64,000 nucleotides of DNA from IMG/VR virus record IMGVR_UViG_3300036791_001907, positions 1 to 64,000 of that record. One strand, 5' to 3'. Below are positions 61,707 through 64,000 of this stretch, one piece after another. The notes under the pieces were generated by a model, which was given only the letters and a program-made list of their open reading frames with translations, was not told the DNA's origin and ran no database searches. Made by a program: the position numbers and the translations under genes. Position 1 is the stretch's first letter. The number at the start of each line of letters is the position of its first letter. This DNA is from a virus.

Positions 61707-61928
61707 GTGTCAAAGATAGTTCATTTGATCTATCATCGCGTCCCCAACGATCGGATCTCAGACATGAGCGAGGTCGTGGGGGTCGTGACCACGGGCTGGC
61801 AGGATGCCGATGCGATCGTGGATCAGCTCAACGCGCGGGACCCATCCGGATTCGGCTGGCAGCGCGACTACTGGAAAAAGGAGGTTGATGTCATCACCAA
61901 GGATGATGTTCCGCGTCGCACTCCATGA
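61707..61928 (+). CDS. Small hypothetical protein between arrays
   Basis: Perfect SD AAGGAGGT; GTG 61707. Confidence 0.6.
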   Translation: MSKIVHLIYHRVPNDRISDMSEVVGVVTTGWQDADAIVDQLNARDPSGFGWQRDYWKKEVDVITKDDVPRRTP

Positions 61929-61940
61929 CAGGAGACAGCG

Positions 61941-62207
61941 ATGATCTGTCCGGAATGCGGGCATTCCAACCCGGTGATCGCCGCCGAGTGTCTCAAGTGC
62001 CGGTGCCGGTTCCTGGAACACGGTTGTTTTTCCGAGCAGTATCAGCACCCGCTCGTCGGCAAGCGAATCCAGGTCAATACCAGGACCGGCTGCATGGCCG
62101 AAGGGGTCGTGGAGCGGGTGGTGTCTTCACGTTTCGGCCTGCTCGCCTGCCTGGAAGGCGAAAACGGCAGGGCCTGGGCCGTGAACCAATGCACGCCGGT
62201 CACCTGA
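61941..62207 (+). CDS. Zinc-ribbon protein between arrays
   Basis: SD AGGAG; CPECG...CLKC. Confidence 0.65.
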   Translation: MICPECGHSNPVIAAECLKCRCRFLEHGCFSEQYQHPLVGKRIQVNTRTGCMAEGVVERVVSSRFGLLACLEGENGRAWAVNQCTPVT

Positions 62208-62250: not shown

Positions 62251-62522
62251 GGCTAGCCCTGGCGACATCAGCAATGGTCGCGCGAGCACTGCCGTGGCGC
62301 GTTCAGGCAGTACAGGCGGGGTGATGCGGGCAACGGCAGGGCCGGGTCCGTCCGGCGATGTCATGCCACGGTATGGCAGCTCAGGTGAGTTCAGATCGGC
62401 CATGCGCGGGCTGGCTGCGGTGACCAGAGGTGGGTCGAGCCGTGGCGAGGCAGCGTAGCCATGGAAGGGTCGGGTCGGTTGAGCTGCGGCGAGCCCAGCT
62501 GACGCAGGGCTGGCCGCGGCAG
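62251..62522 (+). ncRNA. Pentamer-periodic guide-RNA array 2 (4 units)
   Basis: Anchors GGCTAG 62251 and GGCAG 62306, 62375, 62449, 62518; spacings 55 (1-nt insertion), 69, 74, 69. Confidence 0.8.
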
Positions 62523-62528
62523 CAAAGA

Positions 62529-62557
62529 ACCGATGGCCAGCGGTATATCTGGCGGTG
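62529..62557 (+). repeat. Array leader hairpin, copy 3 (ACCGATGGCCAGCGGTATATCTGGCGGTG)
   Basis: Third copy of the 29-nt repeat. Confidence 0.9.
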
Positions 62558-62569
62558 ACGGGAAGCATC

Positions 62570-62628
62570 GGCAGCGACGGAATGGCAGGGCAAGTTGCGT
62601 CTTGTTCCGGCCAGCCAAGTCATGGCTG
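62570..62628 (+). ncRNA. Pentamer-periodic guide-RNA array 3 (single unit matching the adjacent Cas7-like gene)
   Basis: GGCAG 62570 to GGCTG 62624 (54 nt); the NN string matches 62854-62883 at 9 of 10 dinucleotides. Confidence 0.8.
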
Positions 62629-62754
62629 CGTCGTATTGCCGATCACTACGAGGACGATCCGCCTGCGCGGTGGATCGGAACACGTACTGAACACCCTACA
62701 GTTGCAGGGCCGCGGGACGCGCGGCCCGTCTCACTGGCGACAAAGGATGATCCA

Positions 62755-63666
62755 ATGCCAGCCAAGAAAGGTCCGGCCAAGGGGACAGTCCCGGTCAACA
62801 TCCCCCAGCCACAGATCCTCGACTTCGGGATCGGACTCATCGGCGTGACGCCGACGATCTCGAACGCATTCCCGCAGAAGATCCGTGAGAAGCTCGTGGC
62901 TGATCACATGCACATGCCTGAGGCCCTCATCCCCCACGAGGCCAAGGACCCGTGCGCCAACTTCAGCGCGTGCATCCACTACGTCAAGTCCAAGGACGGT
63001 GGGGTCAACTTCGCCATGCCCGGCTCCTCGTTCAAGGGGGCCATGGTCGCGGCGTGCCGGATGACCAACAAGAAGTTGGACATGGCCAGTGCCAAGCAGT
63101 TCTTCCAGGTGATCCCGTTCCGGGTCCAGATGTACGGCGACGAGCCGATCATGTGCGAGCACCGGGTCCGCAACGACAACGGCGGCGTCGACATCCGGCA
63201 CCGGGCCATGTACTGCCGTTGGTCGGTGATCCTGCCGATCCGCTACCACGCGGGGTCGATCTCCAAGGAGTCCCTGATCTACCTGGCGGAGCTGGCCGGC
63301 TTCGGCTGTGGCATCGGTGACTGGCGGATCGCGGCGCCCAAGAGCCCCAACGGGCAGATGGGCGCCTTCCGCGTGGCCCGCGAGGGCGAGATCGTCGGCC
63401 CGGCGTACTCCAAGTGGTGCGCCAAGAACCCGTTCGACTGGGACGAGTTCGAGCAGTACGGCATCGTCCCGCCCGCGCGGGTCGAGTACTACCGCAAGGC
63501 CGCCGAGATGGTTCGCGGCCTGCCGCCCGAGCAGCGGGGCACGCCCAAGAAGGGCAAGAGCCGGAAGGCTGTGCCCACCGCTGCGGCCGCCGCGGCGATC
63601 ATCAACGGCGTCCAGCCCGTCGACGGCCTTGAGCCGCCCGATGACGGCTACGTGCCGCAGCAGTAA
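62755..63666 (+). CDS. Stand-alone Cas7/RAMP-like RNA-binding protein (candidate guide-RNA effector, Vipr-like)
   Basis: SD AAAGGA before ATG 62755. RAMP hallmarks: beta1 IGLIGVTP, MPGSSFKGAM (cf. IPGSSLKGA), thumb region HRVR...DIRHRAMY..W and Gly-rich loop AGFGCGIGDWR...GQMGAFRV. Confidence 0.75.
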   Translation: MPAKKGPAKGTVPVNIPQPQILDFGIGLIGVTPTISNAFPQKIREKLVADHMHMPEALIPHEAKDPCANFSACIHYVKSKDGGVNFAMPGSSFKGAMVAACRMTNKKLDMASAKQFFQVIPFRVQMYGDEPIMCEHRVRNDNGGVDIRHRAMYCRWSVILPIRYHAGSISKESLIYLAELAGFGCGIGDWRIAAPKSPNGQMGAFRVAREGEIVGPAYSKWCAKNPFDWDEFEQYGIVPPARVEYYRKAAEMVRGLPPEQRGTPKKGKSRKAVPTAAAAAAIINGVQPVDGLEPPDDGYVPQQ

Positions 63667-63741: not shown

Positions 63742-64000
63742 ATGCCATCGGGTGTCAAGAAGAAGTCATCAGCGCCGGCGCCGGCGCTCAAGTACGAGTT
63801 CCGGGCCTGCTTCCGGAGCCCGCTCGATCCCAACGTCGTCGCGGCGCGGCTCGAATGGCTCAGAACCAGACTGAGCCGGGACCCGGAGGGTCAGGACGTC
63901 CTGGAAGACGCCCGGCCCGTCGGCTCGCCGTTGCATGATCACTTCGACTGGAATGACTACGAGGCCGGCGAGAAGCATCGGCTCGGCCAGGCCACGGATC
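63742..64000 (+). CDS. Partner protein of the Cas7-like gene (3'-truncated by the window; absent from the ORF track)
   Basis: SD AAGGA; open to the window end: MPSGVKKK...DVLEDARPVGSPLHDHFDWNDYEAGEKHRLGQA. Confidence 0.7.
   Translation, partial: MPSGVKKKSSAPAPALKYEFRACFRSPLDPNVVAARLEWLRTRLSRDPEGQDVLEDARPVGSPLHDHFDWNDYEAGEKHRLGQATD

Follow-up and report, generated by a model that had tools for sequence, protein, structure and literature searches.

Systems known as VIPR (Viral Interference Programmable Repeat) combine a protein, Vipr, with vrRNA guides (bioRxiv 2026, 10.64898/2026.04.26.720920 and 10.64898/2026.04.26.720927). On the GGY triplets of a vrRNA, the RAMP protein Vipr assembles into a polymer by which the NN dinucleotides are presented (10.64898/2026.04.26.720920; structure in 10.64898/2026.04.26.720927). 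These dinucleotides recognise double-stranded DNA by a pairing that passes over every third base of the target (usually the wobble position), and the outcome of targeting is the transcriptional silencing of rival mobile elements (10.64898/2026.04.26.720920). It was argued that wobble skipping makes the guides immune to synonymous escape, and staggered arrays with one-base overlaps were described (fig. S18; 10.64898/2026.04.26.720920, 10.64898/2026.04.26.720927). In the SUSP1 system, R-loop formation proceeds 3' to 5', starting at the 3' pseudoknot end (10.64898/2026.04.26.720927). Targets are called in the VIPR papers at 80% NN identity, and the published surveys report no self matches at 80% or more (10.64898/2026.04.26.720920). 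A further class of guides, solo vrRNAs directed against early codons of rivals' vipr genes, was described mainly on VIPR-null phages, with self-matches lower than non-self matches (10.64898/2026.10.15.759431).

Here, we analysed a stretch of 64,000 nucleotides (the window; positions 1 to 64,000 of IMG/VR virus record IMGVR_UViG_3300036791_001907), in which a candidate for a vipr-directed guide stands directly upstream of an intact vipr gene. The guide is carried by a soil jumbo-phage contig of 161,481 bases with 65% GC, and the locus is phage-borne. Its two protein-coding elements are:

62755 to 63666, plus strand: vipr, encoding a 303-aa RAMP/Cas7-like Vipr protein (profile match, hhalign and Foldseek)
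63742 to 64000, plus strand: start of a putative accessory (vap-like) gene of 177 aa, which runs to 64275 beyond the window and occupies a conserved ORF position

A profile built from the 303-aa protein and nine homologs had a sole match in the PDB, SUSP1 Vipr (36pp_D, E 1.6e-5), in the G-loop region aGfGCGiGdWR, and hhalign against SUSP1 gp039 returned a probability of 94%. The AlphaFold model (pLDDT 67) gave top Foldseek matches that were all Csm3/Cas7 chains (probability 0.97-1.0, E about 2e-3). The protein is therefore a Vipr, a homolog of the characterised minimal RAMP protein with its RRM core, G-loop and thumb. The alignment to SUSP1 Vipr covers the C-terminal G-loop region alone and does not place the lysine of the motif ISNAFPQK, which is discussed below, against the essential K33 of that protein. 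An ORF of 174-193 aa is found 3' of vipr here and in the relatives with enough downstream sequence, with a 79-aa ORF between the two in L045/L046; the 177-aa product of the present locus had no match among Pfam and PDB sequences that would place it in one of the classes vap1-6.

Between 61.3 and 68 kb, the plus strand carries 44-49 runs of 7-15 GNY-NN pentamers, which end in GGCAG and often overlap the next run by one base; relatives carry such arrays, too. Two small ORFs (61707-61928 and 61941-62207 of the window) lie between two guide blocks. One of their products is an 88-aa protein with zinc-ribbon-like character (a weak Pfam match below cutoff). A 3.4-kb contig from the source run has this pair of ORFs ahead of vipr, too. 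Judged by its sequence, the locus is a VIPR system, composed of a Vipr RAMP protein and GGY/NN vrRNA arrays in a staggered layout. It shares with the published systems a relative of SUSP1 Vipr as its RAMP protein, GGY/NN arrays that flank vipr and a putative accessory gene beside it, a wobble-aligned code with one-base skips, the phage-borne location and a staggered array with one-base overlaps. In contrast to the published systems, Vipr has 303 aa including a C-terminal extension (195 aa in the published protein), a pseudoknot motif stands 5' of the guide instead of capping its 3' end, the units are delimited by GGCAG, and a native guide has 90% NN identity to its own contig.

This guide and its surroundings comprise the following features:

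62522 to 62561, plus strand: conserved pseudoknot-type motif of about 40 nt at the head of the guide block (direct-repeat family D1)
62562 to 62588, plus strand: post-pseudoknot linker TGAC GGGAA GCATC GGCAG, then a linker-like CGAC GGAAT GGCAG (module comparison)
62570 to 62629, plus strand: vrRNA guide unit, in which ten GNY-NN pentamers are informative, from GGCAG (5') to GGCTG (3') (pentamer parse)
62584 to 62588, plus strand: pentamer 3, ggcAG, whose AG is the sole dinucleotide that mismatches the gene (register and alignment; it shares the frame of the eight pentamers behind it and does not reset the frame as a boundary would)
62706 to 62727, plus strand: GC-rich hairpin between guide and gene (fold; the counterpart in relatives is a strong intrinsic terminator)
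62854 to 62883, plus strand: guide-matching site, codons 34-43 of vipr (TISNAFPQKI), with the skipped base at the wobble position (alignment)
62860 to 62862, plus strand: Ser36 codon TCG, codon 36 of vipr (sequence)

The pseudoknot-type motif occurs in 11 copies with stem covariation in the genome and in many copies in relatives. Each block of several units has a single copy, which in the present block stands 5' of the guide; an Rfam search with it gave no family match. A lone copy followed by a short pentamer run was seen at genome positions 85327-85460, about 17 kb from the main arrays. The intact vipr starts 125 bp 3' of the guide, so that the carrier is VIPR-positive rather than VIPR-null. 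A consensus scan called no promoter or terminator, and the hairpin at 62706-62727 is without a T-run. The arrangement of pseudoknot motif, one guide and hairpin in front of vipr is shared by the relatives L039, L045 and L047. This slot extends over 62522-62730 in the window and corresponds to L045:7835-7990, L047:3010-3150 and L039:5750-5990; in L045 and L047, its hairpin forms a strong intrinsic terminator, and its guide differs in every lineage.

Parsed into pentamers, the unit reads ggcag cg AC gga AT ggc AG ggc AA gtt GC gtc TT gtt CC ggc CA gcc AA gtc AT ggctg. Its dinucleotides AC AT AG AA GC TT CC CA AA AT stand against the codons ACg ATc TCg AAc GCa TTc CCg CAg AAg ATc of the phage's own vipr, a same-sense match of 18/20 bases in which the lone difference is AG versus TC at Ser36. 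The sequence-only reading had pointed out a single guide/gene mismatch at this serine, which the alignment bears out; the count of one rests on the parsing of ten informative pentamers. It was also right that serine alone has codon families (TCN and AGY) differing at both positions 1 and 2, with AGR coding for Arg. At sequence level, the match fits the one-base-skip rule, as 18/20 is reached under an NNx pattern in the codon frame with the skips on wobble positions. It is bounded by GGCAG and GGCTG, and the flanking codons P33 and R44 match at one of two bases each. Contiguous searches of the window with the guide (exact 10-mers, and 16-32-mers allowing at most 5 mismatches) were without result since the match is gapped.

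Over both strands of the genome (161,481 bases), the second-best site for the guide reaches 14/20. When the order of the dinucleotides was shuffled 300 times, no site went above 16/20 and site counts dropped about 6-7 fold per added match, which extrapolates to a chance of about 1e-3 per guide per genome for at least 18/20. A self match of at least 15/16 was found for one of 44 parsed guide runs, namely 62570-62629, and among all fetched loci no cross-match at this level was seen apart from that of this guide. A chance or decaying match, perhaps the relic of an older guide, whose near-identity to vipr is without consequence, would fit the deviation of the first two triplets (gcg and gga) from GGY. 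We consider this explanation very improbable: the value of about 1e-3 decreases further for an in-frame site inside vipr, which makes up 0.6% of the genome, no other N-terminal motif of the clade is as conserved as the target, and triplets such as gga are present in many other units. Another guide (67018-67057) decodes as (F/L)PAAAGP(S/R) and matches LPAAAGPS at genome positions 159263-159286 in 8/8 amino acids, with family swaps at Leu (TT/CT) and Ser (AG/TC). This candidate for a second self-match was rejected as probably due to chance, as its site resembles an out-of-frame translation and shuffles yield 0.25 such matches per trial.

Why should the only mismatch be an AG? The guide module itself offers one possible answer. 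The module at 67119 is nearly the same as the pre-vipr module (62515) as far as GGCAGCGACGG, beyond which the two diverge, so that the first dinucleotide, AC, falls in the shared leader. GGAATGGCAG, the ten bases that follow, has the same sequence as the linker behind the pseudoknot at 66241 (module at 66219) and fits the canonical post-pseudoknot linker of relatives, TGAY-GGRAN-GGCAG. The second, linker-like copy CGAC GGAAT GGCAG contributes guide dinucleotides 1-3 (AC, AT and AG), and the two modules, alike up to GGCAGCGACGG and divergent thereafter, suggest an evolution of guides through duplicated modules and inserted pentamers. With a GGCAG delimiter, a linker-like GGAATGGCAG and an AC from the leader, AG may have been constrained or inherited rather than chosen. 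Taken further, CGAC GGAAT GGCAG would be a duplicated linker, AG nothing but array punctuation, the guide proper AA GC TT CC CA AA AT, and the correspondence to serine accidental. This option was absent from the sequence-only reading. It draws on the identities just described and on the frequency of GGCAG, which terminates 24 of 49 parsed runs and occurs 74 times in 7 kb. We nevertheless regard it as improbable, because the register is unbroken from the upstream GGCAG through pentamer 3 (4/4 in frame versus 0/4 staggered), both dinucleotides upstream of AG match the gene at T34 and I35 (1/256 by chance), and in-frame internal GGCAG occurs elsewhere at about random expectation. The aligned codon would moreover be serine by chance in about 5-10% of cases, so that punctuation would turn the correspondence into a coincidence of about 1 in 10-20. 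More generally, the linkers behind the pseudoknots are built to one scheme of TGAY, then 0-2 pentamers and then GGCAG (62562-62588; genome 66260-66273 and 67160-67185).

The close homologs of the protein amount to nine, with 44-60% identity and all of metagenomic origin, and the DNA of eight other lineages was compared. ISNAFPQK is nearly invariant in this near clade and is its most conserved N-terminal motif; in the wider Vipr family (2806 representative clusters, E up to 1e-3) it is confined to the near clade. Ser36 is invariant in the nine Vipr lineages with DNA and is written TCG in four and AGC in five of them. Codon and guide match at this site are as follows:

G000 (self): Ser36 TCG, guide match 18/20
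L044: Ser36 AGC, guide match 17/20
L039: Ser36 AGC, guide match 16/20
L040: Ser36 AGC, guide match 16/20
L045: Ser36 TCG, guide match 15/20
L047: Ser36 TCG, guide match 15/20
L048: Ser36 AGC, guide match 14/20
L056: Ser36 AGC, guide match 13/20
L058: Ser36 TCG, guide match 8/20

The best non-self match is thus 17/20 in L044, compared to 18/20 in self with one internal double mismatch. L044 agrees with the guide core AT AG AA GC TT CC CA AA at 16/16 bases and mismatches at the ends only. At the threshold of 80% NN identity, three of four near-clade members with AGC pass (L039, L040 and L044, with L048 at 14/20), whereas the non-self members with TCG fail. The sequence-only reading had counted a lack of AGY at this serine in all homologs among the findings that would speak against it; this case does not apply, as five of the eight other lineages write AGC. 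Two of its proposals, a guide that targets the orthologous effector of a close competitor while sparing self and a phage that recoded its serine to escape self-targeting, both gain from these five lineages and from the 16/16 core match of L044. They are inseparable, since the Ser36 codon family switched at least twice on the tree and its ancestral state is ambiguous.

The clade formed by L044, L045 and L047 (81-85% nucleotide identity) shares nine serine codons, of which Ser36 alone switches family. At 65-70% nucleotide identity, Ser family switches are common at other columns as well, so the TCG of G000 is unexceptional by itself and the polymorphism is suggestive but not significant. TCG and AGC are the two commonest Ser codons in the genome, which makes a swap at Ser36 neutral for codon usage. 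A family difference also exists at the clade-invariant Leu108 (63076-63078), which is TTG in G000 and CTN in six of six near-clade relatives. It would be visible to a wobble-blind guide, and no matching guide was found.

Taking these observations together, we suggest, with a probability of about 0.5, that the guide is an anti-vipr vrRNA aimed at relatives of the AGC type and that self is partly spared by the Ser codon-family swap. Vipr protomers would align on the GNY triplets of the guide and present its ten dinucleotides, which would pair with the template strand of vipr at codons 34-43 with each wobble base skipped, and the pairing would halt transcription in the early part of the gene. Read as codons, the guide gives (T)ISNAFPQK(I) with serine as AG and would hence fit family members with AGY at the invariant serine, while the phage's own TCG would place a two-base mismatch within the site and lead to weaker self-binding. 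A Ser family swap would be the only synonymous change in the site that is visible to the wobble-blind code. We infer that the guide is expressed and loaded onto Vipr, that the mismatch at Ser36 weakens binding, and that the real target is a closely related phage with AGY at codon 36. In favour of this reading, AG is one of 15 possible non-matching dinucleotides and the sole one synonymous with serine, and the guide footprint covers early codons (34-43 of 303) of a vipr gene in wobble alignment. Alignment to early vipr codons is also a property of the solo anti-vipr vrRNAs of VIPR-null SUSP1-like phages (10.64898/2026.10.15.759431), and the idea of a self-match kept below the non-self match as a means of avoiding autoimmunity is common to both. 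The present case differs from them in a VIPR-positive carrier whose nearest match is its own vipr, in a single Ser family swap as discriminator, which is absent from that paper, and in another host and phage lineage (here from soil, 65% GC).

It counts against an anti-rival guide that self, at 18/20, is the best-scoring site known and lies above the 80% NN target threshold. The VIPR literature (10.64898/2026.04.26.720920, 10.64898/2026.04.26.720927, 10.64898/2026.10.15.759431) contains no mismatch-tolerance series. If the polarity of SUSP1 holds here, where the pseudoknot is 5', seven dinucleotides would pair perfectly before the mismatch in pentamer 3 is reached, and self-binding might largely persist.

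Such persistence would suit a different function. Effector-adjacent guide-like RNAs with imperfect complementarity to their own effector gene or its promoter are known from CRISPR systems, where CreR and the long-form tracrRNA of S. pyogenes cause repression rather than destruction through partial contiguous pairing to a promoter. The guide described here is likewise a guide-like RNA beside an effector with an imperfect match to the effector's own gene, but its site is inside the coding region, its code is gapped, and the feature is not conserved in relatives. By analogy, the guide could load Vipr on its own early coding region and cap the Vipr level, with the Ser mismatch tuning the affinity or simply being tolerated, which is the attenuated autoregulation that the sequence-only reading had listed last. 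In favour of this proposal, self is the best site found (18/20 versus 17/20), with 14/14 bases matched over the 3' seven dinucleotides, so that unwinding 3' to 5' as in SUSP1 would reach the mismatch late. Furthermore, the guide is directly upstream of vipr in the same orientation, the site is about 100 bp into the gene and suits a transcriptional roadblock, and 90% NN identity exceeds the threshold used for natural targets. The relatives do not follow this pattern: the pre-vipr slots of L039, L045 and L047 hold unrelated guides without a match to their own vipr genes (best score 13/16, at noise level), so a self-match to the own effector is not conserved among related loci, and an ISNAFPQK guide is absent from all relatives. 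Autoregulation also runs against the published surveys without self matches at 80% or more, and it would make it a matter of chance, between 1 in 9 and 1 in 15, that AG is the sole Ser-synonymous alternative. On balance, we hold autoregulation to be unlikely, yet the most serious of the alternatives to a self-sparing anti-rival guide.

The VIPR system and the class of anti-vipr guides are already known (10.64898/2026.04.26.720920, 10.64898/2026.10.15.759431). New are a VIPR-positive phage in which a native guide comes close to matching the phage's own vipr, a lone difference between guide and self that consists of a Ser codon-family swap, and an invariant Ser36 that alternates between TCG and AGC across the family. 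As far as we are aware, this is the first native guide whose identity to its own contig reaches 80% or more; the surveys reported none. The use of six-fold degenerate codons as a loophole in a wobble-blind code is not discussed in the VIPR papers (10.64898/2026.04.26.720920, 10.64898/2026.04.26.720927, 10.64898/2026.10.15.759431). Serine with its families TCN and AGY, and to a lesser degree Leu and Arg, are an exception to the proposed immunity against synonymous escape, because a change of family alters the positions that are read while the protein remains unchanged. We tentatively propose, as an idea that may well turn out to be wrong, that Ser36 is under arms-race selection: closely related jumbo phages would target each other's vipr at the invariant ISNAFPQK, the serine family would decide who is hit and who is spared, self included, and family swaps of six-fold degenerate amino acids would be the only synonymous changes visible to the code. 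If the swap indeed separates self from non-self, this would account for a VIPR-positive phage that is armed against the family of its own effector. Sites of escape and counter-escape in vipr and in other targeted genes could then be predicted, and self-sparing guides would have a simple design rule.

Searches for the supposed rival covered viral, genome and metagenome collections. A 20/20 target was found in none of the three, which weighs against an anti-rival guide. The exact gapped pattern ACNATNNNNAANGCNTTNCCNCANAANAT had 0 matches in viral contigs and 38 in genome contigs, where about 17 were estimated by chance (18 fixed bases, both strands, 596 Gb). We rejected these 38 as targets, as their number is about that of chance, they stem mostly from AT-rich taxa and none is inside vipr. 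Back-translated ISNAFPQK with an AGY serine gave 0 viral matches, and its six metagenome matches were discarded as all are in stop-filled frames. A search for related loci based on the Vipr alignment found none in viral or metagenome contigs, and protein searches with shorter fragments and with the N-terminal region alone added nothing new.

Two short contigs come nearer to the site. A 276-nt contig of the source run aligns to 62814-62851 only. In a second soil run, a 735-nt contig is about 91% identical to vipr 62956-63537, which shows that a relative far closer than any assembled homolog exists; the contig ends about 45 bases short of the guide site and about 95 short of Ser36. In the named phage collection, relatives have about 30% identity only and belong mostly to Mycobacterium and Gordonia phages. 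Distant Vipr homologs of about 180 aa (26-30% identity) are annotated as hypothetical proteins in 25 Mycobacterium, 5 Gordonia and one cyanophage record, e.g. NC_051648 (37427-37960) and MN234179 (32525-33061) along with 29 others.
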